Positions 12,958 to 34,792 are shown, counted from the first letter of the stretch. The stretch: 64,000 nt of DNA from Patescibacteria group bacterium (GCA_023380305.1 JAMCQZ010000008.1:5588-69587); one strand, 5' to 3'. Numbers and translations: made by a program. Notes: generated from the letters alone by a model not told the origin.

Positions 12958-13494
12958 TTATCCCTTTTTCGTCCCCAGGGCGGAGGCAAACCAGGAAAGC
13001 TCCTCAAAAAACTCCTTAAGCCAATCCCTGTATCTTTGGTCGATTATTTTTCCTTCGGCGTCGAACAATTTTTCCACGTTTCCGAAATACATCGCGCTTT
13101 TTATCGGTATCATGTTCAACTCAATAAGCGCGATTCGTAGCATCTCGGCCATAACGATTCCCCCGTCAAATCCCGAAGACACTCCGCAGATACCGACCGG
13201 TTTATGGCGGTATTCTTCATAAAGCTGATCCAAAAGGAGCTTTAATTCTCCTGGATAACCGTGGTTGTATTCCGGCGCTACGATAATGATCCCCTGGCTC
13301 CGCAAAACCAAATCCTGCCAACGCTTATCGATATTTTTATTATCGGTAAATCGCAGATCAAAATCCCTGATATCGATCATCGGAGATTCGAATCCAAACC
13401 GGTTTGCTTCTTCGGTCACGAATCTGGCCGGCCGGTCCGACCGCCTGCCTTCGCGGCCGGTCCCCAAAATTACTGGAATTAATAATTTCCCCAT
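12958..13494 (-). CDS. NAD(P)H-dependent FMN reductase-like flavodoxin-fold protein
   Basis: ILGTGREGRRS...IIIVAPEYNHGYPGELKLLLD matches the NADPH-dependent FMN reductase family. Confidence 0.7.
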   Translation of the reverse strand: MGKLLIPVILGTGREGRRSDRPARFVTEEANRFGFESPMIDIRDFDLRFTDNKNIDKRWQDLVLRSQGIIIVAPEYNHGYPGELKLLLDQLYEEYRHKPVGICGVSSGFDGGIVMAEMLRIALIELNMIPIKSAMYFGNVEKLFDAEGKIIDQRYRDWLKEFFEELSWFASALGTKKG

Positions 13495-13549
13495 CTAATA
13501 AAAACCCTCGAAAAATATTTTGTTTTTTGACGATCGGGACAGTCGCTGC

Positions 13550-13933
13550 CTATTCGACGACGATCTTGCCGGTCATCGACGGATGAATGGCGCAATGGTA
13601 GGAAAATTCGCCGGACGAATCGAAGACAACCTCAAACGTTCCTCCTTGAGGCAACGAATCGCTCTTAAACGCGCCTGCGTCGTCGACAATCACATGGGCC
13701 GTGGCGTCGTTATTGATCCACCGGACCGCCGATCCCCTGACAATCGAAAGCTCTCGCGGTTGAAAGGAAAAACCCCCTATAACCACCTTGGTAACCGTGA
13801 TAGGCGAAGGTTTCGGCCCGGGTTCAACGGAAACTTTTTTAGAAGAAACTTTTCTCTTTAAAAAAGCGGAGTAAACGTAATAAATTCCCGAAGCCACGGC
13901 CGCCACAATGATGATCCAGATGATGATGCTCAT
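13550..13933 (-). CDS. Membrane-anchored cupredoxin (plastocyanin/azurin-like blue copper protein)
   Basis: N-terminal TM helix. C-terminal type-1 copper ligands H...YHCAIHPSMTG (Cys-x2-His-x4-Met). Confidence 0.7.
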   Translation of the reverse strand: MSIIIWIIIVAAVASGIYYVYSAFLKRKVSSKKVSVEPGPKPSPITVTKVVIGGFSFQPRELSIVRGSAVRWINNDATAHVIVDDAGAFKSDSLPQGGTFEVVFDSSGEFSYHCAIHPSMTGKIVVE

Positions 13934-13963
13934 TGATAGCGCTGAACTTAAAACGGGCAGACG

Positions 13964-14224
13964 TCAAAATTGAATCACATACAATCCGTCCTTGATAATT
14001 TCTTTCTTCTGACCGAAATCATCCAAGTCGAATTTCAAAACGTAATCGACTTTTTTGGTGATTTTCCGGCCTGTCGGCTGCTTTTTGACCGGATCCCACT
14101 CCTCAAGCACCAAGGTGTCTCCTTCTTTAATGGAAAAATCGGCTAATCGGAGTTCAAACCTCTTTTTCCCGGACTCGACTAAATTGAAAAAACGCGGCCA
14201 AATTTTCTTTTTAACAACTGCCAT
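13964..14224 (-). CDS. ASCH/DUF3850-like PUA-fold protein
   Basis: 86 aa, KRFELRLADFSIKEGDTLVLEEW pattern of DUF3850. Confidence 0.55.
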   Translation of the reverse strand: MAVVKKKIWPRFFNLVESGKKRFELRLADFSIKEGDTLVLEEWDPVKKQPTGRKITKKVDYVLKFDLDDFGQKKEIIKDGLYVIQF

Positions 14225-14953: not shown

Positions 14954-15661
14954 TTAATGCCCGGCGAGATAAACGGAGATAACCGCCGCTGTTTCGGCTC
15001 GCAGCACGAGATTTCCGAGGGACGCAATCTGATAATCGTTCTCCGCAGCCGCGGCAAACTCCCTGTCAGTCCAACCACCCTCGGGTCCGATAAAAACGCC
15101 AACGCGCTTGTCACCATACATCGAAAACCACTGCGGTTTCTCGAATGTCTGTCCTTTGGGATCGAAAAAAATATTCAGCTCGTTATCTCTGGCTTGTTCC
15201 ATGGCTTCGTCGAAACCAATAATTTCAGAAACCTCGGGAAGAAAACCGCGTCCGGATTGCTCGGCCGCCTCTTTGACTATTTTCCGCAGACGGCCGATGT
15301 TCAGGTTGAGCTTGACCGTCCTGTCGGAAATAATCGGGAAAATCGCCCGCGCTCCGACTTCGGTCGCTTTTTCGGCAACCCATTCGAAATTTTCCTTTTT
15401 AAGCAAGGCGCAATAGAGGACGACCTTGACGGCCGGATCGTTCGTGTTCTGTCTTCTCTCTCCGGCCGCGAAAGAAATAAACCGCGGATGAAAGGACTTG
15501 AGCGTTCCCGTAAATTCCGATCCCTCGCCGTCGCCGAAAACGACCTCTTCCCCGGGTTTTAATTTGAGAACGTTTTTGATTTGGTTTACGAGTTCTTCGT
15601 CGCGGAGTTCCAGATAACCGCCCTCCGGCGCGAAATTGCCGATGAATCTGTGTTGTTTCAT
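14954..15661 (-). CDS. rsmE: 16S rRNA (uracil1498-N3)-methyltransferase
   Basis: 235 aa, C-terminal GPEGGWT SPOUT motif, N-terminal PUA-like domain. Confidence 0.85.
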   Translation of the reverse strand: MKQHRFIGNFAPEGGYLELRDEELVNQIKNVLKLKPGEEVVFGDGEGSEFTGTLKSFHPRFISFAAGERRQNTNDPAVKVVLYCALLKKENFEWVAEKATEVGARAIFPIISDRTVKLNLNIGRLRKIVKEAAEQSGRGFLPEVSEIIGFDEAMEQARDNELNIFFDPKGQTFEKPQWFSMYGDKRVGVFIGPEGGWTDREFAAAAENDYQIASLGNLVLRAETAAVISVYLAGH

Positions 15662-15667
15662 TCCAAA

Positions 15668-16420
15668 CTATATTCTGATTGCTTCGACCGCCATGAAAAG
15701 AGGTATTTCTTTTCTCGCCTTGTCTTCGGCTTTTTGCCTCGGCCCTGGTTCGCTTTTTTTATCGGAATTCCATTCTTCGAGGCGCAAAACAGCGAAGCCC
15801 TGCCTGGCGAGCGCTTTAAAATAAACTTGGAGTGGCCGGTGGAACGACCAGGTACGTTCTTCAGGCGCGGAGCCGGGATGCGTTTGAATGGCGGCTCTGG
15901 ATTCCGATATGTAGGCGTCCACGCGACGATATTGGACTTGTTTTTCCGGATCCCAGCCCCAGCTCGAAACCTTGGGGATGCGGAAAGCCGGGTGGTTCAG
16001 CACAAAGTACAGCCGGCCAATCTGGCGCAAAACGCGGCGACATTCCGAGAAAACCGAGCCGATATCCGCCATGTTCTGAAGAGCCAAGATAACAGAAATC
16101 TTATCGATTGATCCGTCCTCCAAAAAATCCAGTTTATCGGCGGCGACCGCGTGATATTCGACTCCTGCGGATTTGCTTTCGGCGATTTTTATAAGTTCCG
16201 GAGATAGGTCAGCTCCGATCACTTTTTTGGCCTTTTTTTTGAATTCTCGGCTGAAAAATCCCTGGCCGCAGGCCAAGTCCAAGACAACGTCGGTTTTTTC
16301 GATTTCCATCATCCTCAAGAGATTGGGCAAGATCAGATCTTTTTGGTAGGTGCCTTCGGACTCCAAAAGTTCGTCGTACCATTTCGCCGCCTTTTCCCAG
16401 GACGTTCCGTTCTTTTCCAT
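15668..16420 (-). CDS. Class I SAM-dependent methyltransferase
   Basis: VLDLACGQGFFS motif I, then acidic motif II region. Confidence 0.75.
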   Translation of the reverse strand: MEKNGTSWEKAAKWYDELLESEGTYQKDLILPNLLRMMEIEKTDVVLDLACGQGFFSREFKKKAKKVIGADLSPELIKIAESKSAGVEYHAVAADKLDFLEDGSIDKISVILALQNMADIGSVFSECRRVLRQIGRLYFVLNHPAFRIPKVSSWGWDPEKQVQYRRVDAYISESRAAIQTHPGSAPEERTWSFHRPLQVYFKALARQGFAVLRLEEWNSDKKSEPGPRQKAEDKARKEIPLFMAVEAIRI

Positions 16421-16426
16421 AGGTGT

Positions 16427-16816
16427 CTAATCTAATCCTAACGCAGCATTGACTTTGGAGACAACGTCGTCCATTGTCCAGTCGGTCTTTAACAAATAAA
16501 AGGAGGGTTCGTCGTGGGTAACTCCATATATCACCTTATCGTCGGCGCTTAGATTGGTGAGAATAACAATCGGTATTTTTTTACCCCACTCGGTCAGCCG
16601 CAGTTTTTTCATCATCGTCATGCCGTCCATTTTGGGCATCAAAAGATCGAGGATGATCAGGTCCGGCTTTCCCTTTTCGGCCGCCGCGAACCCCTCTTCG
16701 CCATCCTTGGCCTCGATGATACTAAATCCAACGCCGGAGAATTTATCCGCCAGCGCCCGTCTCACGGCCGGTTCGTCCTCGACCACAAGAATAATCTTGC
16801 CGCAATGTTGATTCAT
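16427..16816 (-). CDS. Response regulator (receiver domain only)
   Basis: KIILVVEDE...DLIILDLLMPKMDG...ILTN CheY-like receiver. Confidence 0.8.
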   Translation of the reverse strand: MNQHCGKIILVVEDEPAVRRALADKFSGVGFSIIEAKDGEEGFAAAEKGKPDLIILDLLMPKMDGMTMMKKLRLTEWGKKIPIVILTNLSADDKVIYGVTHDEPSFYLLKTDWTMDDVVSKVNAALGLD

Positions 16817-18435
16817 TTGGTTGAAGTTTCTAATTTGCTTTCGGAAGCCGACTTTTGCATGTTCGCCTCCGCTCTTTTGAAAGGAAGAATAACGAAAAAA
16901 GTTGTTCCTTTGTTTTCGGCCGACTCAAACCAGATGCGTCCGCCCAGTTGTTCCACGAGAGATTTAATAAGGTAAAGGCCGAGTCCATTTCCGTCGGGAT
17001 CAACCTCCCGCGCATTATCGGCCCGGAAAAGCTTAGCGAAAATCTTGTCTTGCTGGCCGGAAGGAATGCCTATACCGTTATCGGCCACGGTAATCGACAA
17101 ATTACCGCTTTCCTTTTGGATTGACTCGGTGATACGCCCTCCCTCTTTAGAATATTTGACGGCGTTTGAAAGCAGATTCTGGATAATGATCCTGATGATT
17201 TTGGGATCGGCTTCTATTTTCGGCATGGATCCGTATTTTTTATCCACGACGATATGCCGCTCCCGCATCTGCGGTTCGAGCTCGCCAATAACGCTGTCAC
17301 TGATCGCCGCAACATCGACAGCCTCGGGTTCTATCGGGAAAGTGCCCAGATCGATCTTGGACACGTTTAAAAGAGCGTTGACGAGATCGATCATTCTTTT
17401 GTTCGTCCGATAGATTTCATCAAGATAGGTCTTTTCTTTCAGTGTGATTTTACCGACGTCCCCGCCCAAAAGCATCTCCGAATACCAGTTTATGATCGAG
17501 AGCGGCGTCCGGAGCTGGTGCGAAGCCAAAGACACGAATTCGGTTTTGGCTCGATCGATCTCTTTGGTTTTGGTAATATCGCGTTCGACGCCGACATAGA
17601 ACCTGACATTCCCGGATCCGTCGAGGATCGGAGAAATCCTGAGCTCGGCGGTATAGACAACACCGTCTTTCCGGCGATTTTGCAGTTCCCCAATGAACGG
17701 CATTTTTTTATTTTTGATGGTATCCCACATCTGTTTGTAAAACTCGTCCGGCATCTGTCCGCCCCACAAAGCAGGCGTTTTCCCCTCCATCTCTTCAAAC
17801 GAATAACCCGTCATTGCCTCGGCCGCGTGATTCGCGTAAATAATCTTAGCGTCCGGATCGGTGATCATAATATGGTCCGAGGCGCTATCAACCGCCAAGC
17901 GGAATTTTTGAAGATCGGCCGCAAGATTCTCCGAAATTCTCTTTTCCCGGTCAACATCTTCAAGAACGTTCAGAAGGGCCGTCTGCGTATCTTGAAGAAT
18001 TTTATTCTTTCCTTCGATTTCCGACAGTCTCATATCCAACTCCCTCGTCTGGGCCCTTAATTTTTCCTGAAGCTCGGCGTATGCGACGTTCAACTTCCCC
18101 GCCATAAGGTTAAATGCGTCTATTAAAACGCCGACGTCTCCAGCGGCGCCCTTTTCCAGTTTGATAAAAGGTTTGCCTACGGAGAATCTCTCTGCAGCGT
18201 CAATAAGTAGTCTTATCGGCACAATGATGCGAGCGATAAAAAGATAAGCGACGACAGCCGTGATCGCAAAAGCTAAAATGACTAACGGGAAATAAATTTC
18301 CAGATTCCTGACCGCAAAATAAAACAAGAAGTCAAAAAGCACATTCCCTAAAACGAGGGCGGCCAGGAAACGCGCCGCCAAAGGCAGCTTATAGCCCACC
18401 GTCGGCCGCGATTGCTGGTTATAATTCATGGACAT
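16813..18435 (-). CDS. Sensor histidine kinase (2 TM, PAS, HisKA, HATPase)
   Basis: Two N-terminal TM helices, PAS region, H-box LASHQLRTPLS, and N/G1/G2 boxes (NAVKYS, DNGIGIP, GNGLGL). Confidence 0.85.
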   Translation of the reverse strand: MSMNYNQQSRPTVGYKLPLAARFLAALVLGNVLFDFLFYFAVRNLEIYFPLVILAFAITAVVAYLFIARIIVPIRLLIDAAERFSVGKPFIKLEKGAAGDVGVLIDAFNLMAGKLNVAYAELQEKLRAQTRELDMRLSEIEGKNKILQDTQTALLNVLEDVDREKRISENLAADLQKFRLAVDSASDHIMITDPDAKIIYANHAAEAMTGYSFEEMEGKTPALWGGQMPDEFYKQMWDTIKNKKMPFIGELQNRRKDGVVYTAELRISPILDGSGNVRFYVGVERDITKTKEIDRAKTEFVSLASHQLRTPLSIINWYSEMLLGGDVGKITLKEKTYLDEIYRTNKRMIDLVNALLNVSKIDLGTFPIEPEAVDVAAISDSVIGELEPQMRERHIVVDKKYGSMPKIEADPKIIRIIIQNLLSNAVKYSKEGGRITESIQKESGNLSITVADNGIGIPSGQQDKIFAKLFRADNAREVDPDGNGLGLYLIKSLVEQLGGRIWFESAENKGTTFFVILPFKRAEANMQKSASESKLETSTK

Positions 18436-18438
18436 GCC

Positions 18439-19401
18439 TTACGCTTTCTCGCCGAAAGATTTTTTTAGTTTCTCCATCTCCTGTTTTAACGCGACCATAT
18501 TCATTTCACGGTCAACCATCAGCCTGTTCATTTTTTCGAGCTCTAACAAATGTCTTTTTTCTTCGGCTATTTTTTCTTTTTCTTCGGTGATGTCGTCGAA
18601 AATCGCGTAGACATGACAAGGGGTGTGGTCTACTTTTTTCTGTTCGGAAACGGCATTCGCCCTAATCCAAAAGAGCTCCGGTCTTCCTTTGGTTTTTACC
18701 CCCCTCACGGCCCCGGCCACGTTCTCGCCGGTTCTTAAGGTAATGACTGCCGGATAATCCTCCGGTGGACAATATGATCCGTCTTCATAGACCATCGACC
18801 ATAAAGAGGTCGTCGGTCTCAGGCCTATTACTTCTTTGGCGGAAATACCGAGGATGCGTTCAGCCGCCGGATTAATGGCAACGATTTTCCCAGTATGATC
18901 CATGTAGAATACGCCCGAATTCATGGTGTTTATAAGCAGCTTGTACCTTTCCTTGATGTCGCGAAGGCCCGTCTCGATCGCCCGCTCTCTCGTTACGTCG
19001 CGGCCGATGCTGATAACGCCGAAATTCCCCGATTTATGATCGTGAAAAACCGCGTTGCTCCAATCAACGACTAACCGACGCTTGTTCTTGCCGATGACCG
19101 CATTCTCGTGATGGATAAATATTTTGTTCTGTTTGATGCTTTTTTCGAAAAGAGGCCTAAGCCCGGCCTCGGACGGAGTGAATTCTTCAATCCAATCCCG
19201 ACCGATCAAATCCTTCGGGGCGATGCCCAAAAGCTTCGATAAATAAACGTTGCCGTACAAAACCCTAGCCGTATTGTCCAGGACAAGCACGACCACGTCC
19301 ATAATATCGAAAACCGCGAACCAATGGGCTTTGAGCTGATCGAAACTAATTTCCAGATGCCGGCCGTGATTTGGATGATTCTGATTATTTTGAGGAGTCA
19401 T
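18439..19401 (-). CDS. Stand-alone tandem PAS sensor protein with C-terminal coiled coil
   Basis: Two PAS folds, no output domain. C-terminus ELEKMNRLMVDREMNMVALKQEMEKLKK. Confidence 0.75.
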   Translation of the reverse strand: MTPQNNQNHPNHGRHLEISFDQLKAHWFAVFDIMDVVVLVLDNTARVLYGNVYLSKLLGIAPKDLIGRDWIEEFTPSEAGLRPLFEKSIKQNKIFIHHENAVIGKNKRRLVVDWSNAVFHDHKSGNFGVISIGRDVTRERAIETGLRDIKERYKLLINTMNSGVFYMDHTGKIVAINPAAERILGISAKEVIGLRPTTSLWSMVYEDGSYCPPEDYPAVITLRTGENVAGAVRGVKTKGRPELFWIRANAVSEQKKVDHTPCHVYAIFDDITEEKEKIAEEKRHLLELEKMNRLMVDREMNMVALKQEMEKLKKSFGEKA

Positions 19402-19898
19402 CGCGATAATTTCTTTTTAAGCAAGGCCAGTTCGTGCTTCAACTCCAGCATTTTGTTTTCCCGGTCCACCATCAGCCGGTTTATCCGTTCGAGCTCTTGT
19501 GTACGTGCGACAACGGCTTTTTCCGTTACTCGCTCGCGAGTAACGTCTCTTACCGTTCCCACCACGAATATCATCCCGTTTTTATCGATGTAACGGGCCT
19601 TTCTGGTTAGAATGATGTGCGTTTTTTTACTCTTGTCGGTGTAAGTTTCTTCGTTGGTATTCACCTGCCCGGTTTTTAAGACTTCACTGTCATTTTCCCA
19701 AAATACCGCCACTTCTCGTTCCAAATACAAATCTCGGTCGGTTTTGCCGATGATTTCGTCGACCGGATAACCGAAAAAATCCGCGTAAGCCCTATTCACG
19801 AAAACAAACGCATGGTTTTTATCCTTAACAAATACCGGATCGGGTATGACGTTCAATATCTCCCTCAAAAAACTTGCACCGTTTATCGCCTCGGCCAT
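19398..19898 (-). CDS. Stand-alone PAS sensor protein with C-terminal coiled coil (paralog of previous)
   Basis: Single PAS. C-terminal ELERINRLMVDRENKMLELKHELALLKKK, near-identical to the motif in the neighbour. 4-nt overlap (ATGA) suggests translational coupling. Confidence 0.7.
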   Translation of the reverse strand: MAEAINGASFLREILNVIPDPVFVKDKNHAFVFVNRAYADFFGYPVDEIIGKTDRDLYLEREVAVFWENDSEVLKTGQVNTNEETYTDKSKKTHIILTRKARYIDKNGMIFVVGTVRDVTRERVTEKAVVARTQELERINRLMVDRENKMLELKHELALLKKKLSR

Positions 19899-20419: not shown

Positions 20420-22147
20420 TTATTGGTTGATCTCTCCGATATTTTCAATCAAATATTTGGAAAGCTTTTCGATATTCCCCTGGATTCGCTTCAGGCCGTA
20501 TTCCATCTCGCTCGCTTCTCGCTCGCTGATGTCCTTGTCACTATAGTTTTGTATCATTTTGGCGATATCTTTTTTGATAAGACCGAAGACCGCCACGATG
20601 TCTCTTTGGGCGATCAATATTCTCCGGCTGCGCATAATGCTTCGCTCCCTCATTGAAAACCAGCCGAGAAGAACGCCGACAATAAGCGTCGCGAGAAGCA
20701 ACCCGATCATGCCCGATTGAGTTATTTCGAATCCGCCGATCATCATGACCGGCCTTTCTTTGGCCGTGATCGCTTCCGATCGCGCTGGTAGACTTACCGC
20801 TCCGCGATTATCTTCAGCGACCGCCTCGATATAATAAACTCCCCGTTTCAAAGGATTGTTGAATTCTCCGGAAAAATTTCCGTTCTGATCCGGAGTCGCC
20901 TGGAGGGAAGCAATAACGTCGCCGGGCTTAGACCTTAAACTGACATTTACCACAAAGCTCGTAGACGCGGTGCCTTGGAATCTCAAGCCTCCTTCTCCAA
21001 CAAAGACCTGCCTGGTAACCGAGGTAATCGTCGGCGACGGCAACGGCAGAACCTCGAAATCAAGCGTGCTAATATTTTCGTTCCCGGCGTTATCGACGGC
21101 GGCTACCCTGACGATATGTTTTCCGGGGGTTAATTTAGAAAAAGTGAAGCTCGTATTTTTGGTCTCGACGGCCGCAGCGTTGTCGAGTTGGACTAAATAC
21201 GTCCTTATTCCGGAGAGAGAATCGGCGGATTTATAGTCGATGATCGGGCTTGGGTCCATTGTCGAAGCCGCCGGCGATATTTGAATATTAAACGCCAGCG
21301 GAGGTTCGCTATCTATCGCTAACCGATAATGAGCCGTCGGGCCCCAACCGATGTTATTTCTAAAACGCACGTGCAAATACGAGATGCCATCGGAAAGCGC
21401 GTTAAAAGTCTCATTGTCGAATAATCCTCCCGAAATAGCCGGACTGGCTGTCGGAAACTTGTCGATAATCGCGGCCACGGCGCCGACATCGCCGGGCAAA
21501 GTCCATTTAGCAAGAAAAGGCGCTATAGAGTTATACCAGGCGGCCGGATCCGGATAAAAAGGCACTTCCACCGTCGGTTTCACGGGCAAACCCGTGGCTG
21601 GGGCAGCTTCGCGGATGATCTGGGTGATGGGCGCGGCCGCTGCCGGCGGGACAACAACGCCGGATTTCGGAACAACGCTTAACTGCGCTCCGTTCATGGC
21701 CGATAAAACATTTGTCCCGCTGCCGTCGCTCGCCGTCACCGCGCCGTCGCTAAACACCAAATTTATCTGACCCGAGCCGACGGCCTTGAAGACCACCGAA
21801 ATTATTTGCAAGGACTGGCCGAATAAGCCGCTCGTCGATCCGCCGATAAACTTGACCTGGCCCTTCGCGTTATCGAAAACCGGATCCTGCAGCCAGAAAT
21901 TGATAACCGAACCGGTTTTATCGACACTTTGCGCCTGCAGAATATCTTTGGGGAAGTTCAGCGTTCCCTGAAAGGCATTCACTCCAGTGTTTTCGCTGTT
22001 TACGTGAATATCGACTTTAACCGTATCCCCTATCCCCAAGCTCATTTTGCTAGACACCAGATCCAAAGACGCGGCTTGCGCCTTTAAAGAACCGAAGAAG
22101 ATAAATCCTATAAATAGAAAAAAGAATAAATAAATTGTTTTTTTCAT
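20420..22147 (-). CDS. Cohesin-domain surface protein with signal peptide, Ig-like middle region and C-terminal TM anchor plus cytoplasmic coiled-coil tail
   Basis: Signal peptide MKKTIYLFFFLFIGFIFFGSLKAQAA. The first about 140 aa (IGDTVKVDIHVNSENTGVNAFQGTLNFPKDIL...INLVFSDGAVTASDG) fit the cohesin beta-sandwich consensus. TM GLLLATLIVGVLLGWF near the C-terminus. Confidence 0.65.
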   Translation of the reverse strand: MKKTIYLFFFLFIGFIFFGSLKAQAASLDLVSSKMSLGIGDTVKVDIHVNSENTGVNAFQGTLNFPKDILQAQSVDKTGSVINFWLQDPVFDNAKGQVKFIGGSTSGLFGQSLQIISVVFKAVGSGQINLVFSDGAVTASDGSGTNVLSAMNGAQLSVVPKSGVVVPPAAAAPITQIIREAAPATGLPVKPTVEVPFYPDPAAWYNSIAPFLAKWTLPGDVGAVAAIIDKFPTASPAISGGLFDNETFNALSDGISYLHVRFRNNIGWGPTAHYRLAIDSEPPLAFNIQISPAASTMDPSPIIDYKSADSLSGIRTYLVQLDNAAAVETKNTSFTFSKLTPGKHIVRVAAVDNAGNENISTLDFEVLPLPSPTITSVTRQVFVGEGGLRFQGTASTSFVVNVSLRSKPGDVIASLQATPDQNGNFSGEFNNPLKRGVYYIEAVAEDNRGAVSLPARSEAITAKERPVMMIGGFEITQSGMIGLLLATLIVGVLLGWFSMRERSIMRSRRILIAQRDIVAVFGLIKKDIAKMIQNYSDKDISEREASEMEYGLKRIQGNIEKLSKYLIENIGEINQ

Positions 22148-22161: not shown

Positions 22162-25100
22162 TTATCCTTGCACTGTTCTTACAAAAATACTGAAGTCTTT
22201 GACGTCGACCACGCCGTCTCCATTGAAATCGATTCTTTTCCGCGCGGCTTGGTCAGTTGAGTTCCATAACGACAAAAAAATGCTTAAGTCTTTGACGTCG
22301 ACCACGCCGTCTCCGTTAAGATCGGTCTGGGTAGTGAAAAGTTGGGAAACGTTGAAGAACACCTGTGGCGAAAATTCGCTTTGGCGGCCGTCGGTTAATC
22401 GTTGTCGAGTCTGCACCGCATGAGATCCATAATTAAGATTGCCCGTATTAAACAAAATCTTGTAAAAACCAGCGACGTCTGCCGAAGTGCCGTAATCAAA
22501 CGCTTGGCGGTCAACAGTGAAGCTAATGGCGCTCCGTGGCGTCGCATAGCCTTGAATAGTGGCAAAATCGCCTTTCGTAACAGATTCTCGCAGGATACTC
22601 ACAGTCGGAGAAACCACTATATTCTCTTCAAAGAGCGCGCCGGCGACATCCAATTTATAAGACCGGGTCTGCACCGAATGGCCGTCTCTATCGGTTACGG
22701 ATAAAGCGTAAGTATAAATCCCTCTTTCCGTCAGGCCGTTGAAACGCACTTCGAAATCTCCGTACGAAGAAGTGACGGTTGTTTGAGTCAAGGTTTTTAC
22801 AACGCCAGTCGTGTTATCAAGATAAACCAAGGCCACTTTGGCTCCGGGAAAAGCTTTGCCTCTGAAAAGAATATCTGCCCGGAAATATCCCGGCACAGGA
22901 GTTGGCGCGGCCGGTGGCGGCGGAGCGGCGCTCCAGATTGCCAAGGATGTTGCCGAAACATTAAGTCCGGTGGAAGCCGTGTCGCTCAAGGAGAAATTGA
23001 CTGTTTCAGAAACGCTGTCGGTAATGCTCGCCGCGCCGACGCCGCTTGCGATCGTCACCGCTCCTCCGCCGGTGGCCGAACCAGAAACAACCAAGGTGAC
23101 CGAGCCGTTAAAAGTCGTCGCCAGATTGTTACTATTATCGACGGCTTTGATGGTTACGGAAATCGGAGATCCGGTTTGCGCCGTGGCCGGCGAGACGCTC
23201 ATTATAAATTTCGTGGCCGTCACCACGAGCGGGGCGACGACGACCGACCGCGAGGCGTCAGTGATGCCAGCGGAACCATCCGGAGCCGTGGCATTGTCCG
23301 AAACAGTTATGACATAAGTGCCGGCCGTATCGTCGTAGTACCAGAAATTAGCCGTGGAAGCGCCGTTCGGGATATCAATCGATTGAATAACATTTGATCC
23401 GGTCGCAGCGTCATAGAACTTCTTATTTGATGAAGTCGAAGTCGAATACAAATAGATTATGGTCACGCCCGTAGTAATAGTGTTATTGAAGCTATCGAGC
23501 CGACTTACCGTATAGCCAAGCCTGGCGCCCGCCGTCATGTTCCCTGGATTATTTAAAGCGAATTTGGCGACCGTAGCCGCGGTAAAGGTCACCGTTTGGG
23601 TTGAAGAAACGTCAAGCCCGGTGGGAGCGGTGTCGCTTAAGGAAAGATTGACTGTCTCGGCAACGCTGTCGGTAATATTTGCCGTTCCGGTTCCGTTTGT
23701 AATCGTTACCACTCCTCCGCCAGTGGCCGAGCCGGAAACAACTATGGTAACCGAATTATTGAAAGAAGTATCCACGGAATTGTCGGCTCTTTGAGCTTGG
23801 ATAGTGACGCTGACTGGACTGCTGACAGTATTATTCGTAGGCGGCAGAATGACGAGTTTGGTGGCGGTTGATGGCAGGCTAGTTACCATAAGCGAATCCG
23901 CAGCATCAGCGATGCCAGCGGCTCCATCCGGAGCTGCGACATTGTCCGAAGCGGTAATAGTGTAGGTTCCCGGAGTATCGTCCACGTACCAAAAATCAGC
24001 TGATGAATTGCCGGCTGTAATATTGATCGAAATGATGATGTTTCCTCCGGAGGCGGCGTCATAAAACTTTTTGTTGGCGGAAGACGAGGAAGAATATAAA
24101 TAAGCTGTGTTGACGCCCGAAGTCGCCAAGTTTCCATATTGGTCTTTTCTCGTAACCGTATAGCTAGCCCGCGAATTGGCGACCACGCTTCCCGGATGAT
24201 TAAGGAAGAAAGCGGAGACGGCTCCCGGAGCGAAGATAACGGACTTGGTCGAAGAAACATCGAGCCCAGTGGAGTTGGAGTCGGTTAGAGAAAGATTGAC
24301 TGTCTCGGCGACGGTGTCGGAAATATTCCGAGTACCCTCACCATTAACGATATTGACCACTCCTCCGCCGGTGGCTGAGCCGGAAACAACCAAGGTGACC
24401 GAATTGGAATAAGTCCCTGCCAAGGCGCCTGAAGAATCCTGGGCCTGGACAGTAACGGCGATCGGATTGTCGACTGTCCCGTTTGCCGGTTGGATAATGA
24501 CAAATTTGGTGGCCGCAACAATAACAGTTAGTGAATCCGTCCCCGGAGTGAGCACTCCGGAGGAAACAGTAATAGTCCAGGTCCCGGCTTTGTCGTCGAA
24601 ATACCAGAAGTTAGCCGAAGAATTGCCTGAAGTGATATCAATGGAAGTGATGATATTCCCTCCGGAAGCGGCATCATAGAACTTGTAATTGCCGGTAGAA
24701 TTGGAAGATAAGCTGACGGTGGTGGTTCCGGAAGTCACTAAGTTACCAAAAGAATCTTTTCTCGTCACCGTGTAGCTCGCTCTGGTACCAGCCGAAATTG
24801 TTCCCGGATGATTCAAAAAAAGAGCCGAAGCAGAAGAAGGATTGACGACCAGCGAATCTGTTCCCGGAGTAAGCGCCCCGGAAGAAGCGGTAATCGTCCA
24901 GGTTTCTGGGAAATCGTCGTAATACCAGAAGCTGGCTGACGAATTGCCGGCCGTGATATTGATCGAAGTGATGATGTTTCCGCCAGAAGCGGCATCATAA
25001 AAAGCTTTGTTCGTTCCGGTGGAGTTCGAGGAGAGACTGACTGTTGTTGTTCCGGAAGTCACTAAGTTGCCAAAAGAATCCTTGCGGGTGACGGTATATC

Positions 25101-26262
25101 CCGCGCGAGTGCCGGCGGTGATCGGACCGGGATGATTCAAAAAAAGAGCGGAAGCGGAAGAAGGAGCGAAAGTAACGCTTCTTGTCGAAGAGACATCCAA
25201 TCCGGTTGATTGGGAATCGGTAAGAGACAAGGTGATGATCTCGGCAACATTATCCGTGATGTTTTTGGTGCCGACACCATTTGTAATCGTGATCAATCCG
25301 CCGCCGGTCGCCGAACCCGTGGTGTTTAAGGTAACACCTTGATTGTAGGTTGTATCAACGCTGCCGTAGCTATCTTGAGCCTGGATAGTGATTGTAAGCG
25401 GGACGCCGGCTGTTCCTGGTCCCGGATCCAAGATGACGAATTTAGTGGCGGAAACAATCACAGTTAGCAAGTCTGTTCCCGGAGTGAGCGCTCCAGAAGA
25501 AGCGGTGATGGTCCAGGTGCCGGCTTTGTCATCCGTATACCAGAAATTGGCCGATGATGAACCATTATTAATATTGATTGAGGTGATGATATTGCCTCCG
25601 CTTCCCGCGTCATAAAAATTAAAATTGCCGGTGGAATTGCTCGATAGCGAAACGCCAATTGTTCCGCTGGTCACCAAATTGCCGAAAGAATCCTTGCGGG
25701 TGACGGTATAGGCCGCGCGAGTGCCGGCCGAGATTGTCCCCGGATGGTTTAAAAAAAGAGCCGAGGCGGAAGCGGGGTTAACAATCAAATTGTCAGTGCC
25801 GGAAGTAAATCCGGATTGAGAAGCGGTAATCGTCCAAGTCCCGGCGAGCTCGTCGTAGTACCAAAAATTAGCGGAAGACGATCCATCAGGAATAGTGACC
25901 GAAGTGATGATGTTGCCCCCGGAAGCGGCATCATAGAATTTCTTGTTAGCTCCAGTTGAAGAGCTCGACAGATTGACGACAGTCGAACCGATTGTCACCA
26001 AATTGCCGAAAGAATCCTTGCGGGTGACGGTATATCCCGCGCGAGTGCCGGCGGTGATCGGGCCGGGAGAATTAAGGGTAAAAACCGAAGCCACGTCAGT
26101 TACCATCACCGTCGGTGAAGAAGCAATATTAGTTAAAGTTCCGGAATCGGAAACTCTCGATTGGGTGGTAAAAACAGAATTGCCGACCGTACTCGTGGCC
26201 GTGGCGCCGCTTGCTCCGCCGCCAGCTCCGTAGATAACGGTAATGGTTTGCGGAGAAGCCAA
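22162..26262 (-). CDS. Giant repeat-rich surface protein ending in a type-I dockerin (C-terminal portion of a split gene)
   Basis: 1366 aa. Ten Ig-like repeats in A-A-B-A-A-B-A-B-A-B order, Pro-rich linker, beta-sandwich region, then DLNGDGVVDVKDLSIF...DFNGDGVVDVKDFSIF, two canonical dockerin Ca-binding segments. Starts with TTG immediately after an in-frame TAG. Confidence 0.75.
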   Translation of the reverse strand: MASPQTITVIYGAGGGASGATATSTVGNSVFTTQSRVSDSGTLTNIASSPTVMVTDVASVFTLNSPGPITAGTRAGYTVTRKDSFGNLVTIGSTVVNLSSSSTGANKKFYDAASGGNIITSVTIPDGSSSANFWYYDELAGTWTITASQSGFTSGTDNLIVNPASASALFLNHPGTISAGTRAAYTVTRKDSFGNLVTSGTIGVSLSSNSTGNFNFYDAGSGGNIITSININNGSSSANFWYTDDKAGTWTITASSGALTPGTDLLTVIVSATKFVILDPGPGTAGVPLTITIQAQDSYGSVDTTYNQGVTLNTTGSATGGGLITITNGVGTKNITDNVAEIITLSLTDSQSTGLDVSSTRSVTFAPSSASALFLNHPGPITAGTRAGYTVTRKDSFGNLVTSGTTTVSLSSNSTGTNKAFYDAASGGNIITSINITAGNSSASFWYYDDFPETWTITASSGALTPGTDSLVVNPSSASALFLNHPGTISAGTRASYTVTRKDSFGNLVTSGTTTVSLSSNSTGNYKFYDAASGGNIITSIDITSGNSSANFWYFDDKAGTWTITVSSGVLTPGTDSLTVIVAATKFVIIQPANGTVDNPIAVTVQAQDSSGALAGTYSNSVTLVVSGSATGGGVVNIVNGEGTRNISDTVAETVNLSLTDSNSTGLDVSSTKSVIFAPGAVSAFFLNHPGSVVANSRASYTVTRKDQYGNLATSGVNTAYLYSSSSSANKKFYDAASGGNIIISINITAGNSSADFWYVDDTPGTYTITASDNVAAPDGAAGIADAADSLMVTSLPSTATKLVILPPTNNTVSSPVSVTIQAQRADNSVDTSFNNSVTIVVSGSATGGGVVTITNGTGTANITDSVAETVNLSLSDTAPTGLDVSSTQTVTFTAATVAKFALNNPGNMTAGARLGYTVSRLDSFNNTITTGVTIIYLYSTSTSSNKKFYDAATGSNVIQSIDIPNGASTANFWYYDDTAGTYVITVSDNATAPDGSAGITDASRSVVVAPLVVTATKFIMSVSPATAQTGSPISVTIKAVDNSNNLATTFNGSVTLVVSGSATGGGAVTIASGVGAASITDSVSETVNFSLSDTASTGLNVSATSLAIWSAAPPPPAAPTPVPGYFRADILFRGKAFPGAKVALVYLDNTTGVVKTLTQTTVTSSYGDFEVRFNGLTERGIYTYALSVTDRDGHSVQTRSYKLDVAGALFEENIVVSPTVSILRESVTKGDFATIQGYATPRSAISFTVDRQAFDYGTSADVAGFYKILFNTGNLNYGSHAVQTRQRLTDGRQSEFSPQVFFNVSQLFTTQTDLNGDGVVDVKDLSIFLSLWNSTDQAARKRIDFNGDGVVDVKDFSIFVRTVQG
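22600..25900. repeat. Long tandem coding repeats (about 290-330 nt units, two alternating repeat types) within the giant surface protein gene
   Basis: Repeated peptides on the coding strand, and repeated artefactual peptides on the antisense strand (e.g. AVSLKEKLTVSETLSV at 22838 and 23537; MTNLVAATITVSESVPGVS at 24467 and 25388). Confidence 0.7.
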
Positions 26263-26286
26263 AGCAAGCGTGCGGACATTGATGGC

Positions 26287-27924
26287 CTATCCGATAAATG
26301 TCGGATTTCCCGGACCGAGCAAAACATCGTCTAAATAGACCGTCCGCGCGCTCACGTTAGCGTTGTATTTTAGGCCGTAGCTCAAGATACTCGAACGCGT
26401 TCCGCTTAAAGTAAGCTTCTGATACGTCCAGGTATTGGCCGAAAGAGCCGAGAGATTAAGGCTCGCTATCGGGCTCGCAAGCCCGGCCGAACTTGAATAT
26501 TGAAACTGGATGTCGCCGGCCGCAGCCGCTACAGTGGAATAAATCCAGAAACCAACCGTAGTGTATCCAGACCAGTTATTAGCTATGCTTAGATTTTCGT
26601 ACCAATAATCGCCGTTCACGGCATGCGAAGAAATGACGTTTTGGAGAGAGCCGATGCCTTCGTGCTTGGTCGCCGCGCTTGTCGAAAGAACCAACGTATC
26701 GGCGCTCGGCGCGGTCCAGTTCAAAATAGCGTCACAATTATCGATCTGTTTGCCGATGGCGTCGATATCGATATTGACCGCTCCGGTATTAACAACCCTT
26801 TCCAGGCCGTATGATTTTTGAATGATGTTTGAAGAGTTGGGCGCGCTCAAAACCACATATGTCCAGGTATTTGCGGCGAGAGCCGGAATATTGACCGTGT
26901 CGAGGGGCGAGCCGAAATCGGCTGAATTATCATCCTTCCAGACAAAATCCCCGGCATTCAAAGCAATGTTCGACCTGATCCAAAAACTAACTTTGCCTCC
27001 AGGGCCGATGACGAAATTGCCGTTATTGCTGTAGCACTGACCGGCGGTGCCGATTCCGGCTCCGGCAGCGTAGGCGCAACGGATGGCGGCGCTACCCTCC
27101 ATATAATTTCCAGCTGTGTTTAAAAGCGACCGGGTGATGCTTCCGTCGCTTTTCCAAGCAGTCAAAGAATCGGCTGCGTCGAAAAGCGGAGAGATGGAAT
27201 CGGTTTTGACGGTCGCCGCTCCAATGTCGGTTGTATAACGCAAGCCGTAAGACAAAATCGAAGTCCTTGTCGCCGCTCCGAGCGTCACCGAAGTGTAATG
27301 CCAGGTGTTCGCCGCCAAAGCCGGAATGGCGATGGTGTCGAGCGGACTCGCGAGATTCGCCGAATCATCGTCTTGCCAGGAAAGATCTCCCGAGGCAGTG
27401 GCGACGCTCGATTTCAAAAAAAGGCCGACGCGGAGATTGATGGCGTTGGCATCGCCCCAATTAGAGGCTGCGCCGTAATTAAAATACCATTGTTCGTTAG
27501 CGACGGCTGTGGAGCTGATTGTATTTGCTAAAGATCCTGTTCCTTCCGACTTGTCGCCAGTGTCGATGGATAAAGCCATGTGGTTCGATGAAAACCAGTT
27601 AGTCGTCGTATCCAAATTATTTCTGACATCGGCAATGGTTCCGGTCGAACTCGCCGTGGTGTATCCGACAACGCCGTTTATTCCCTGGGGAGCGCTCCAA
27701 CCGGCCGGCGCGGTGATACCGATGCCGCCGGAATCCATCAGCTCGGCTGCGGTAAAAGTAAAAGTCAAAGTATTGCCGGTTGAATTGCGGATAGCCGCCG
27801 TCGGCGTTACCGTGTTCGTTCCCGAACCGTCGGCCGCCAAAGCCGCCTTGATTCCGAGCGTAAACGCAAGCAATAATAAGGCCGCAAAATATAGCTTTAT
27901 TTTATGGAGATAGCTAAAAAACAT
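26287..27924 (-). CDS. Signal-peptide-bearing protein with three CBM-like (carbohydrate-binding-module-like) repeats; N-terminal portion of the split giant surface protein
   Basis: Signal peptide MFFSYLHKIKLYFAALLLLAFTLGIKAALA. Three about 130-aa repeats ending ...ANTWTY...SILSYGL(K/R)Y...YLDDV, a CBM4/9-like signature. Terminated by TAG at 26287-26289, which is in frame with the downstream ORF. Confidence 0.65.
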   Translation of the reverse strand: MFFSYLHKIKLYFAALLLLAFTLGIKAALAADGSGTNTVTPTAAIRNSTGNTLTFTFTAAELMDSGGIGITAPAGWSAPQGINGVVGYTTASSTGTIADVRNNLDTTTNWFSSNHMALSIDTGDKSEGTGSLANTISSTAVANEQWYFNYGAASNWGDANAINLRVGLFLKSSVATASGDLSWQDDDSANLASPLDTIAIPALAANTWHYTSVTLGAATRTSILSYGLRYTTDIGAATVKTDSISPLFDAADSLTAWKSDGSITRSLLNTAGNYMEGSAAIRCAYAAGAGIGTAGQCYSNNGNFVIGPGGKVSFWIRSNIALNAGDFVWKDDNSADFGSPLDTVNIPALAANTWTYVVLSAPNSSNIIQKSYGLERVVNTGAVNIDIDAIGKQIDNCDAILNWTAPSADTLVLSTSAATKHEGIGSLQNVISSHAVNGDYWYENLSIANNWSGYTTVGFWIYSTVAAAAGDIQFQYSSSAGLASPIASLNLSALSANTWTYQKLTLSGTRSSILSYGLKYNANVSARTVYLDDVLLGPGNPTFIG

Positions 27925-28054
27925 CGATTTGTAATTTCGCTATCAAACAACCAAAGCTGCTGGAGAGACTTTAAAGGAAAAAATCGGGCTACAAATTCAG
28001 AGTGATTTTATTATAGCACATAGCCGCGCAAAAACCATAGCAATATCCATAGAA

Positions 28055-29089
28055 TCACCAGATAAGCATGCCATCTCCGAAAGAAAAAAGGGAAAATCCC
28101 TTGGTGATGGCTTTTTTGTAAAGCCCGAGAATTTTTTCCCGGCCGACAAAAGCAGCGACGAGTATGAGTAGGCTCGATTTCGGCACGTGGAAATTAGTAA
28201 TCAAGCCGTCGATGTATTTGAATCGATAGCCTTCCTTGATGAAAAGATTTGTCTCCCCGATTAATTCAGAAAGTTTTCCTTGCTGGCCGCTGGCTGACTC
28301 AAGCGTCCGAACCACGGTCGTGCCGACGGCGATGATCGGCCGGCCCGCTGATTTGGCCTTGTTTAAAAAATCGGCGACAGCAGGCTTAATTTCGTAATAC
28401 TCTTTGTGAAGCCTGGACTCCTCCACCTGTTCTGGAGTCAGTTTGGCGAAAGTGCCCAAATTGACGTGTAAAGTGATAAACTTCAGATCAAATCCGGATT
28501 TCCGCAATTTCGACATCAGCCTTTTGGTAAAATGGAGCGAAGCGGTCGGTGCAGCTACCGAACCTTTGATTTTCGCGAAAACCGTCTGGTATTTTTGTTT
28601 GAGTTCAGATTCCTTGAGGGGCGAATGCTTGATGTAGGGCGGAATAGGCGTTTCTCCAAAGCGTTCCAAAATTTCCATGACGCGGCCGACTAAAAACGAC
28701 GGTTTAAAAAAATGAACATTCTCCTCTTGACGGACAAGAATTAAAGTTTCTTTTTCCCCAAAAAAGATTTTTTCTCCCGAATGGATTTTGCGGTCAACAA
28801 TAAACTTAAGCAATCCCTTCTCCGTCCCGAGGTAGAGCAACTGGATCTTGCCACCGGTCGCTTTCCTCGCCCAGATTCTCGCCGGCACCACTTTGGTTTC
28901 GTTAAAAACCAAGACGGCCCCCTTGGGTAGATAACAGCCGAGGTCGCGAAAAATATCGAAAGCAATCTTGCCCGTCTTCCGGTTGTAGACCAAAAGCCTG
29001 GCGCTGTCCCGCGGACTGGCCGGCTTCTGGGCAATCGCCATTTCCGGAAACGAATAATCGTAAAGCGCGAGCAGTTTCTCGAAATCCAT
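28055..29089 (-). CDS. queA: S-adenosylmethionine:tRNA ribosyltransferase-isomerase
   Basis: 344 aa with typical QueA N-terminus (PRDSARLLV...VFNETKVVPAR). Confidence 0.9.
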   Translation of the reverse strand: MDFEKLLALYDYSFPEMAIAQKPASPRDSARLLVYNRKTGKIAFDIFRDLGCYLPKGAVLVFNETKVVPARIWARKATGGKIQLLYLGTEKGLLKFIVDRKIHSGEKIFFGEKETLILVRQEENVHFFKPSFLVGRVMEILERFGETPIPPYIKHSPLKESELKQKYQTVFAKIKGSVAAPTASLHFTKRLMSKLRKSGFDLKFITLHVNLGTFAKLTPEQVEESRLHKEYYEIKPAVADFLNKAKSAGRPIIAVGTTVVRTLESASGQQGKLSELIGETNLFIKEGYRFKYIDGLITNFHVPKSSLLILVAAFVGREKILGLYKKAITKGFSLFSFGDGMLIW

Positions 29090-30225
29090 CAGATCTTGCC
29101 TTTCTTGATATCTTCGCGAATTTTCTCGACGTAGCTGTTGAAAAAAAAGAGGTTGTGCATGGTGAGGAGCTTTAAGCCGGTAATTTCTTTGGCACGGATC
29201 AGATGGCTGATGTAGCTTCTCTTATATTCTCCGCAAACCGGACAACCGCATTTTTTGTCGAGCGGACCCTTATCTTTCAAAAAAACCGCCTTATTCAAAT
29301 CGAGCCTCCCCGAAGAAATGAAGGCGATCCCCCTCCGGCCGTAATGCGTCGGCATGGTGCAATCAAAGGTGTCCACTCCGGATTTGATAATCTTCGGAAT
29401 ATCCTCAAGGTAGCCGATTCCTAAAAGATGTCTCGGCTTTTGTTCGTCGAGCTCGTTATTCACCCAGCCGAGCATCTTCACCATTGTTGCCTTATCGTCT
29501 CCGAATTCCCCGCCGATGGCGTAACCGTCGAATCCCAGAGAATCGATGAACTTGGCCGAGGCGATCCGCAAGTCCCTAAATTTTCCTCCCTGAACAACAC
29601 CGTAAAGGGCCTGTTTTGATTTTTTGGCTTTTAAGCAGGTCGCGGCCCAACGATGGGTTCTCTCCAGGGATTTTTCGGTGTAAGTGCGGCCGGCTATGGG
29701 CGAAGTGCACTCGTCGAAAGCGAGAATAATATCCGCTCCCAGGTCTTCCTGGATTTTGATCGATTCTTTCGGCCCCAGAAACATTTCGCGGCCGTCGAGA
29801 TATGATTTGAAGTAAACGCCGTCATCGGTGATTTTCAGGTGTCTCGGTTGCCTCCCCTCTTCGAGGATTTCTTCCGAGCTCGATTTCAGAATCTTGCCCA
29901 TGCCGAAATCGCGGCCAAAGCCCAAGCTGAAAACCTGGAACCCGCCGGAATCGGTCATCAGCCCCGATTTCCAATTCATGAATTTGTGCAGGCCGCCATT
30001 CTCCTTGATAATTTTTTCTCCGGGCCGCAGATGCAAATGGTAGGTGTTACAGATGAGAAGTTTCGATTTTATTTGAGCCACTTCCTCGGAAGTCAGGGTT
30101 TTGACGACCGCCTGGGTGGCCACCCCGACCAGAGTCGGAGTCTCGATCTCGCCGTGGGGAGTCTTTAAAATTCCGAGCCGGGCGCGGCTCTTGTCGGACT
30201 TTTTTAAAATCTTGAATTCGATCAT
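29089..30225 (-). CDS. tgt: Queuine tRNA-ribosyltransferase
   Basis: TPHGEIETPTLVGVATQAVVKTL...; Zn site CGCPVCGEY...H; 378 aa. Overlaps the queA start by 1 nt. Confidence 0.9.
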   Translation of the reverse strand: MIEFKILKKSDKSRARLGILKTPHGEIETPTLVGVATQAVVKTLTSEEVAQIKSKLLICNTYHLHLRPGEKIIKENGGLHKFMNWKSGLMTDSGGFQVFSLGFGRDFGMGKILKSSSEEILEEGRQPRHLKITDDGVYFKSYLDGREMFLGPKESIKIQEDLGADIILAFDECTSPIAGRTYTEKSLERTHRWAATCLKAKKSKQALYGVVQGGKFRDLRIASAKFIDSLGFDGYAIGGEFGDDKATMVKMLGWVNNELDEQKPRHLLGIGYLEDIPKIIKSGVDTFDCTMPTHYGRRGIAFISSGRLDLNKAVFLKDKGPLDKKCGCPVCGEYKRSYISHLIRAKEITGLKLLTMHNLFFFNSYVEKIREDIKKGKI

Positions 30226-34225: not shown

Positions 34226-34792
34226 ATGAACCAGGAAGACAAACCGAAAATCCTCCTACACGTCTGCTGCGCCGTCTGCGGAGCGTTGCTGCTTAAAATT
34301 CTCAAGGAACGATTCGAACCGATCGTTTTTTATTTCAACCCGAACATCTATCCGAAGAAAGAATATTTGAAACGCCTGGAGTCGGCTGAAAAACTCGCTT
34401 TGTTGAACCAGACAGATTTTATCGAAGGAAAATACGACTTTGATTCCTGGCGCGAAGCTGTTCATGGATTGGAGCGCGAACCCGAAGGAGGCCGACGATG
34501 TCCGGTCTGCTTCGGCTTGAGGCTCAGACGAACCGCCGCCGAAGCCCGCGAGAGGAATATCAGCTTTTTTGCCACTACGTTGAGCGTCAGCCCCTACAAG
34601 AACGAGGCCATTATCGACCGGCTGGCCGAAATGATTTCCAAAGAAACGGGTGTGGAATTTTTATCCCTCGGGCAAATTTTTCCGGACAAGAAGGATCTCT
34701 GGCGAAAAACCCGCGAGGCTGATCGCGAAGCCGGATTTTATCACCAGAAGTACTGCGGATGCGAATTTAGTCTGAAACAGCCATCCGCATAA
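34226..34792 (+). CDS. queH: Epoxyqueuosine reductase QueH (DUF208)
   Basis: LLHVCCAVCG..., CPVCFGLRL, YHQKYCGCEFS, the characteristic Cys motifs of QueH. Confidence 0.85.
   Translation: MNQEDKPKILLHVCCAVCGALLLKILKERFEPIVFYFNPNIYPKKEYLKRLESAEKLALLNQTDFIEGKYDFDSWREAVHGLEREPEGGRRCPVCFGLRLRRTAAEARERNISFFATTLSVSPYKNEAIIDRLAEMISKETGVEFLSLGQIFPDKKDLWRKTREADREAGFYHQKYCGCEFSLKQPSA

Follow-up and report, generated by a model that had tools for sequence, protein, structure and literature searches.

Two adjacent coding sequences (CDSs) of a Patescibacteria group bacterium share one reading frame and are separated by a single TAG, which raises the question of whether they are two genes, one gene that is read through a stop codon, the product of an assembly error or the halves of a gene broken by mutation. 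We examined this locus in a 64,000-nucleotide (nt) stretch of DNA (GCA_023380305.1 JAMCQZ010000008.1:5588-69587), hereafter the window, where an earlier note made from the sequence alone had pointed to the pair. Both reading frames are on the minus strand. The first open reading frame, ORF1 (27924..26287), starts with ATG and encodes 545 amino acids (aa). Its terminator, the TAG at 26289-26287 (codon 546), is the sole break between ORF1 and the open frame behind it, ORF2 (26286..22162), which is in the same frame, extends for 1374 codons and closes with TAA at 22164-22162. The earliest start-type codon past the TAG is the TTG at 26262, 8 codons on. The public annotation has the two as a hypothetical protein and a 'dockerin type I domain-containing protein' of 1366 aa that starts from the TTG. 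The hypothetical read-through product would have 545 + 1 + 1374 = 1920 residues. The note had described the shared frame and its single TAG without stating the strand, and had put the read-through protein at about 1920 aa; both descriptions proved correct. We consider it likely, with a probability of roughly 0.8, that the TAG is a recent CAG>TAG nonsense mutation which truncates a giant dockerin-anchored adhesin after a head resembling carbohydrate-binding modules (CBMs).

Reality of the stop codon and the genetic code

The TAG is present, in identical sequence, in the Logan assemblies of two Sequence Read Archive (SRA) runs and in two NCBI metagenome-assembled genomes (MAGs). The Logan contigs (L001 and L002, from SRR10267473 and SRR10252151), which were retrieved by exact look-up of ORF1, were assembled from raw reads with an assembler different from that of the MAGs. 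Over 26037-30031 and 26032-28089, respectively, they match the window at 100% identity; both include the TAG and both end at 26032-26037, where the stalk repeats of ORF2 start. Two NCBI accessions from 'Patescibacteria group bacterium' MAGs exist for each of ORF1, ORF2 (begun at the TTG), QueA and the downstream gene, and both MAG protein sets contain identical 545-aa and 1366-aa products; MCL4406214.1 and MCL5261838.1 are among the accessions of the two MAGs. The sequence around the TAG itself is unique, the repeats starting about 250 nt farther downstream. At the consensus level, it is a substitution that is reproducible across four assemblies.

The earlier note had listed an assembly or read error in a repeat-rich gene among its explanations. 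This would mean that the true codon is a sense codon and that an error or a minority variant put the TAG into the consensus. The gene is indeed rich in repeats, MAG consensus sequences can hold errors, and one ortholog demonstrates that artefacts or indels do arise in this family: a Nomurabacteria locus (L007:10010-19041) is divided into ORFs of 916 aa and 2089 aa in different frames, whereas a locus 80% identical to it (L008:9986-19150) has a single ORF of 3054 aa. The break in L007 is inside 258-nt tandem repeats and may be due to assembly collapse or to a real indel. The TAG in the window, in contrast, is a substitution rather than an indel, is located in unique sequence and is the same in two Logan and two MAG assemblies. 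An assembly error in repeats is ruled out at this site, and an artefact of any of these kinds is very improbable.

The window was also analyzed by a stop-to-stop scan for its use of stop codons. TAG ends 11 other accepted minus-strand genes, including the gene ending at 5743, and is the terminator of about a third of the ordinary genes in the window; TAA and TGA are also in use. Since all three stop codons are used and TAG terminates 11 other genes, the standard genetic code applies and a recoded genome is ruled out, in agreement with the earlier note. Elsewhere, TAG is known to be recoded by pyrrolysine decoding and, in some phages, to glutamine. The present locus resembles the latter in that an in-frame TAG occupies a position where the closest relative has Gln. 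It differs from recoding or programmed read-through because TAG is an ordinary terminator here, the stop is not conserved, no stimulatory RNA structure was found and no recoding machinery is visible in the window. Within these 64 kb, we found no tRNA-CUA and no pyl or other recoding genes; the only tRNA is a tRNA-Asn.

The module interrupted by the stop and its relatives

Homologs with 43-62% identity were found in MAGs of Paceibacteria, Colwellbacteria, Uhrbacteria, Nomurabacteria, Magasanikbacteria and similar lineages. The best match in a scan of genome contigs was 62% identical to the window. A scan of metagenomes had as its best match L018 (= P0068), which had been missed by a first protein search together with the window's own protein clusters. 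A phmmer search against 1.84 billion representative proteins returned 840 family members at E <= 1e-3, among which 14 match the whole three-domain head. All of the aligned homologs that reach the TAG site continue through it (21/21), with G, N, S, T or E in the stop column, which corresponds to a short loop. The region is contiguous in 12/13 orthologous genome loci and in 4/4 metagenome orthologs, and 13 of the 14 proteins with the whole head run far past the junction, the exception being the L014 ortholog discussed below. Altogether, none of more than 25 relatives reaching the site has a stop at the TAG codon. The comparison of orthologs suggested by the earlier note thus gave contiguous ORFs, and never two genes of which the second has a signal peptide. 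Because the open frame behind the stop is 1374 codons long and both sides of it are homologous to single contiguous proteins, chance does not account for the arrangement.

The closest relative, L018, has a single ORF of 1635 aa; its identity to the read-through product is 68% over residues 2-1072 and rises to 79% close to the junction. Its codons at the junction are GGC CAG ACG, as compared with GGA TAG GCC in the window. Because L018 has CAG at the aligned codon, one C>T transition accounts for the stop. As this nearest relative is only 68% identical, synonymous sites are saturated.

The position of the stop relative to the protein fold is informative. In all three-domain orthologs, and in relatives with one CBM-like domain (P0023, P0025, P0030, P0034, P0037, P0041, P0044 and P0047), the CBM-like insert is framed by the same two segments. 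The N-terminal segment (residues 31-105; 27610..27834) is conserved in all homologs with the pattern DGSGTN.V.P...GNT.TFTFTAAE...GWSAPQG...GYTT and is predicted to form the first half of a discontinuous beta-sandwich. The closing segment (residues 547-612; 26089..26286), which includes the TTG at 26262, follows the pattern LLGPG.PTF.G...QT.TV.YG.GGG.SG.TAP...FTT.SR.SD.GTL..I...PT and would be the second half of the same head module. Every relative retains the closing segment after its CBM-like domain or domains, be they one or three, and the TAG falls directly ahead of it. Structure prediction by AlphaFold2 (AF2) was performed for ORF1 alone and for a 717-residue read-through construct, with the same 23-sequence alignment for both runs. 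With ORF1 alone, residues 31-110 had a mean predicted local distance difference test (pLDDT) score of ~62 and only two strands; in the read-through construct, the same residues reached a pLDDT of ~86 and gained four extra strands. The closing segment itself was modeled with strands at 548-609 (pLDDT 81-88). This behavior of the pLDDT suggests that the N-terminal and closing segments would contact each other and co-fold. The gain in pLDDT and the invariant architecture argue that ORF1 and ORF2 were not meant as separate proteins. Together with the four agreeing assemblies, these comparisons show that the stop is reproducible, unique to this lineage, one transition away from the codon of the closest relative and inside a conserved module.

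The public annotation, with its two CDSs, would imply two functional genes, in which ORF1 is a free secreted glycan-binding protein and ORF2 is made from the TTG or by termination-reinitiation. The prediction that the CBM-like domains fold without the remainder of the protein is consistent with such an arrangement. On the other hand, the stop splits a module that is intact in all relatives and whose halves are predicted to co-fold, and no relative has two genes each with a signal peptide. ORF2 also has no initiation signal. The start codon was ATG in 33/34 of the genes examined in the window, while neither an ATG nor a TATAAT-like box nor a Shine-Dalgarno sequence was found upstream of the TTG at 26262. 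A consensus promoter scan gave 8 promoter-like sites compared with 8.4 expected from shuffled sequences. Furthermore, the N-terminus of ORF2 contains no hydrophobic stretch although all ORF2 domains are of extracellular type. The earlier note was therefore right that ORF2 lacks a signal peptide of its own and begins at a TTG 8 codons past the stop, and the independent ribosome-binding site or promoter that it proposed to look for was not seen, the promoter scan being at background. We regard two functional genes as extremely improbable.

TATAAT-like boxes were observed 6-11 nt before many of the ATG codons in the window, with no Shine-Dalgarno sequence (for example at 2976, 5338, 31345 and 35479, with further boxed minus-strand starts at 38216, 42123, 49973 and 56256). 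This arrangement suggests leaderless or very short-leader mRNAs.

A probable nonsense allele and its alternatives

We propose that two genes at this locus form an adhesion cassette in a bacterium of the Patescibacteria, or candidate phyla radiation (CPR). The intact form of the first gene would consist of a signal peptide, a head composed of a half-domain, three jelly rolls and a closing half-domain, ten immunoglobulin (Ig)-like repeats and a dockerin. A C>T change would have converted the Gln codon CAG at codon 546 to TAG such that translation ends after the third CBM-like domain. The 545-aa product would still be exported; it would lack the strands that complete its N-terminal domain, the stalk and the dockerin, and it would probably not be displayed on the cell. 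The remaining 1374 codons are most likely untranslated, or they may be made as a cytoplasmic non-functional product. A recent nonsense mutation was one of the possibilities raised by the earlier note, and it is favored by the contiguous orthologs, by the CAG in the nearest relative and by the absence of a start and a signal peptide from ORF2. As to the loss of surface display and the role in adhesion itself, both are inferred.

A nonsense allele of a surface adhesin is a known kind of thing. Premature stop codon (PMSC) alleles of inlA segregate naturally in Listeria monocytogenes, where a nonsense substitution upstream of the anchor leads to a truncated, secreted and unanchored fragment. As in these alleles, a single nonsense substitution precedes the anchoring module in the window and the rest of the gene is otherwise intact. 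The two differ in that the anchor here would be a C-terminal dockerin with a cohesin-like membrane partner instead of LPXTG and sortase, and in that the organism is an uncultured CPR bacterium.

Several observations weigh against a simple recent mutation. ORF2 is intact over 4.1 kb with no second lesion. About 2.6% of random substitutions in ORF2 would create a stop, and the chance of a second stop would reach 50% after ~26 neutral substitutions and 95% after ~112. The lack of a second lesion implies that the mutation is young, that the allele is segregating, or that ORF2 is still under some selection. In addition, the L014 ortholog has its own TAG so near the equivalent site that two random hits in ~2000 codons would be this close with a chance of ~3%, a figure that is suggestive and post hoc. 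TAG was the stop in 3/3 independent nonsense events; it accounts for ~40% of the possible nonsense substitutions in this gene (p ~0.06). Finally, the evidence for the TAG is assembled consensus sequence, and the two runs and the two MAGs may stem from one study site. A literature search with the run and sample accessions gave no result. The pattern of TAG-only stops was considered as a signal in its own right and rejected, as a p of ~0.06 is not significant.

The disrupted genes in other lineages bear directly on these points. L014 (JAPLWO010000055.1) is from a Ca. Magasanikiibacteriota MAG, which represents another phylum-level lineage. Its ortholog at 7205-14149 (+) has 2315 codons and the same architecture, with a single in-frame TAG at 8744-8746 which is 32 residues upstream of the position equivalent to that in the window. 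This TAG, known from a single assembly, takes the place of the conserved Tyr/Phe of the 'S[YF]G' motif in the third CBM-like domain, and the 1800 codons behind it are intact. A different signal-peptide surface protein, with a type-A Ig repeat and a beta-helix-like region, was observed in L053, L054 and L055, which are from the sister samples Ga0172364, Ga0172366 and Ga0172365, respectively. TAG is found in L053:1093 and L054:1583 at the position of a TAC (Tyr) in L055, which is 99.3-99.7% identical to them; this is a segregating nonsense polymorphism. In all three, a G7 homopolymer in the type-A repeat (L055:~955-965, L053:~706 and L054:~1196) puts the sequence out of frame, and G6 at this tract would restore '...STGGNAKFYDAA...'. 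The G7 tract is a candidate for slipped-strand phase variation, or else a fixed frameshift.

One interpretation of these patterns is leaky or programmed read-through. The cell would then produce mostly a free secreted 545-aa lectin-like head and some full-length anchored adhesin, with the stop setting the ratio of isoforms or keeping a costly giant protein at low dose, and with Gln, for example, inserted through a near-cognate or suppressor tRNA. The 1374 intact codons of ORF2 would be explained by this mechanism, as would the L014 TAG 32 residues off at the same boundary of head and stalk with its intact remainder. The three observed nonsense events are all TAG and the ancestral residue in the window is Gln, which is the usual near-cognate insertion at UAG. 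Moreover, a G comes after this TAG, a context not shared by any of the window's 11 genuine TAG terminators. There is, however, no conservation of the stop, as more than 25 relatives are without it, the closest has CAG, and the L014 stop is at a different, conserved Tyr position and known from a single assembly. The RNA fold of 126 nt spanning the stop and the sequence behind it had a minimum free energy (MFE) z of -0.83 relative to shuffled sequences, giving no indication of a stimulatory structure, and an Rfam scan of the window detected nothing at the stop and nothing besides the tRNA. No suppressor tRNA is within the window, where about one ordinary gene in three ends in TAG, and the TAG-only and proximity statistics (p ~0.06 and ~3%) are weak and post hoc. 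We judge read-through to be distinctly unlikely, and the programmed form mentioned in the earlier note is disfavored by the lack of a conserved stop and of downstream structure. The broader notion that low-rate UAG read-through is tolerated or used in these Patescibacteria, with L014 as a second dosage or isoform device, is very doubtful.

Another interpretation is ON/OFF variation in the population, in which a reversible or recurrent switch has the TAG as one of its states and CAG revertants or intact strains co-exist with it. The proposed advantage is that loss of an exposed adhesin may be temporarily favored as an escape from phage or host defence. In favor of it, ORF2 is intact, and disruption has recurred independently, as exemplified by the L014 TAG, the TAG of L053 and L054 versus the TAC of L055, and the G7 tract. 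Evidence to the contrary is that no simple repeat, homopolymer or notable inverted repeat was found near 26287-26289, so that the site has neither a repeat tract nor an invertible element. Classical phase-variable inactivation, another suggestion of the earlier note, is not supported for this reason. TAG is also the assembled allele in all data sets. A search with the junction peptide carrying Q at the site for a near-identical sense-codon allele returned one match of 58% identity, which is a weak and uninformative negative because the same search did not recover ORF2 itself. ON/OFF variation is on balance rather unlikely. It overlaps with the reading we favor, as both take the TAG to be a real nonsense allele, and the confidences in the different explanations need not sum to 1.

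A recent nonsense allele thus remains our preferred explanation, and frequent loss or switching of adhesins explains the patterns in L014 and in L053-L055 no worse than read-through does. Accordingly, the two public CDS entries would be read as halves of one disrupted gene, the split being most probably a nonsense allele and not a recoding signal. Adhesin genes of this sort appear to be repeatedly disrupted in environmental populations, as seen in the window, L014 and L053-L055. Should read-level data bear out this pattern, it would suggest that episymbiotic bacteria often lose or switch their attachment proteins.

The presumed adhesin, its cohesin-like partner and their surroundings

The domain architecture of the read-through product was analyzed from its N-terminus onwards. 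The ATG at 27924 is followed by a Sec-type signal peptide (residues 1-30; 27835..27924, minus strand as for all features of the cassette) with the cleavage motif ALA/AD. AF2 modeled it as a hydrophobic helix of residues 2-28 followed by a disordered stretch, with ALA/ADGSG coming after the helix, and the mature N-terminus 'AADGSGTN' is common to the homologs. The three CBM-like jelly-roll domains (26305..27609) were predicted as beta-sandwiches at residues ~106-250, 251-395 and 396-540 with pLDDT values of 80-95. Their Foldseek matches in the PDB, with E-values of 1e-11 to 1e-7, included tandem CBM22 (4xup, E 3.5e-10), reelin repeats, GH101 and EngBF CBM-like domains, Vip3 and SGBP-B. No Pfam family, CBM families included, matched ORF1 at E <= 0.01. 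For this reason, the domains are described as having a CBM-like fold only, with putative ligand binding. The signal peptide and the three CBM-like repeats which the earlier note had assigned to ORF1 are confirmed in this sense, as a fold without a Pfam CBM family. ORF1 ends with the in-frame TAG at codon 546 (26287..26289), where the closest relative has CAG (Gln).

Behind the closing segment, a stalk of ten Ig-like repeats occupies residues 615-1666 (22927..26082). Repeat analysis divided them into 6 of type A (LNxPG...TRKDxxGN) and 4 of type B (ATKFVI...) in the order AAB AAB AB AB. A 312-aa AAB block is duplicated at 80% identity, with the copies at residues 615-926 and 927-1238 (24211-26082). 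Pfam gave only weak Ig-type matches on the stalk, and a sequence search of ORF2 against PDB chains gave no match. The stalk is followed by a Pro/Ala linker (residues 1667-1679) and a C-terminal beta-rich region (residues 1680-1866), which together span 22327..22926; the latter region also lies ahead of the dockerin in P0003, P0004, P0007, P0025, P0037 and P0068. The protein ends with a type I dockerin (residues 1867-1915; 22180..22326). Its match to PF00404 (Dockerin_1) scores 30.1 bits, above the cut-off of 22.9, with an E-value of 5.6e-7. It contains two D-x-N-G-D-G-V-V-D-V-K-D calcium-loop repeats, which are EF-hand-like and predicted to bind calcium, with the motifs DLNGDGVVDVKD and DFNGDGVVDVKD. 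The ten Ig-like repeats and the dockerin of ORF2 had been recognized in the earlier note, and the repeat count and the above-threshold Pfam match agree with it.

The gene directly downstream (20420..22147) starts 14 nt after the TAA of the adhesin. It encodes a protein of 575 aa with a signal peptide, a cohesin-like domain, a Big_13 Ig domain (35.4 bits), a C-terminal transmembrane helix visible in the translation, and a cytoplasmic tail. The cohesin family PF00963 matched this protein with 20.2 bits, and its orthologs in L018 and L006 with 21.7 and 22.3 bits, respectively. All three scores are below the cut-off of 24.1, and the matches fall on the same residues, ~35-147 (39-146 in the window protein). 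The L014 partner showed no match to the cohesin family. The partner is found directly downstream of the adhesin in four other lineages, namely L018 (52% identity), L008 (45%), and L014 and L006 (both 37%). We presume that it is the membrane anchor for the dockerin. The adhesin would be exported by the Sec pathway and held on the cell by the binding of its dockerin to the membrane-anchored cohesin-like protein. The CBM-like head at the tip of the Ig-repeat stalk may then bind glycans, plausibly those of a host cell.

The gene family and its cohesin-like partner are uncharacterized, yet they are built of known parts. Like the cohesin-dockerin systems of cellulosomes (PF00404/PF00963), the cassette combines a C-terminal two-loop dockerin with an adjacent cohesin-like gene. 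Unlike cellulosomes, it includes no glycoside hydrolase and no multi-cohesin scaffoldin, and the cargo is an adhesin-like stalk instead of an enzyme. The partner would be anchored by a transmembrane helix and not by SLH domains, and its cohesin match is sub-threshold in three orthologs. The long tandem Ig-like stalk carrying a distal binding head, together with the predicted Sec export, is reminiscent of giant adhesins such as Bap, SiiE and LapA. In contrast to these, the window adhesin has its head at the N-terminus, with CBM-like jelly rolls inserted in a split beta-sandwich, and has no type I secretion signal. The head is an unusual module in that its beta-sandwich is interrupted by one or three CBM-like domains. 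The cassette as a whole, a giant dockerin adhesin followed by a cohesin-like membrane protein, occurs across several Patescibacteria lineages.

A dockerin-domain envelope protein of the cultivated saccharibacterium Southlakia epibionticum, SEML1_0315, was found by transposon sequencing (Tn-seq) to be essential for epibiotic growth; the authors of that study proposed glycans of the host cell as its target, either in adhesion or in degradation (PMC10633639). It resembles the protein described here as a Patescibacteria envelope protein with a dockerin, although it belongs to a different lineage. The likeness is one of description, and it lends the adhesion reading some precedent.

Directly downstream of the cassette, the minus strand at 16427-19898 carries genes for three proteins with PAS domains, namely a PAS protein of 166 aa, a PAS-PAS protein of 320 aa and a histidine kinase of 540 aa, and for a response-regulator receiver. 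In L014, a homolog of the kinase (31% identity, 544 aa) comes right after the anchor gene. The adhesin and anchor cassette may be linked to a two-component system. Two other same-frame adjacent pairs, the methyltransferases at 14954-16426 and the PAS/histidine kinase genes at 16813-19401, were considered as possible split genes and rejected, since they are of different families or complete units. They represent ordinary tight packing because the families differ and because the L014 kinase homolog has the same length.

The window otherwise has the appearance of an ordinary chromosome, with ligA, truB, tgt, queA, queH, an aminoacyl-tRNA synthetase gene, nrdD, ftsZ, ftsA and genes for P-type ATPases. 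The genes tgt and queA (28055-30225, minus strand) are immediately upstream of the adhesin and queH (34226-34792, plus strand) is a few kb away; the three constitute a set for queuosine salvage or modification in a reduced genome. A 458-aa homolog of lactate permease is encoded at 47089-48465 on the minus strand. It matches only positions 3-297 of the 522-position Pfam profile and could be truncated or divergent.

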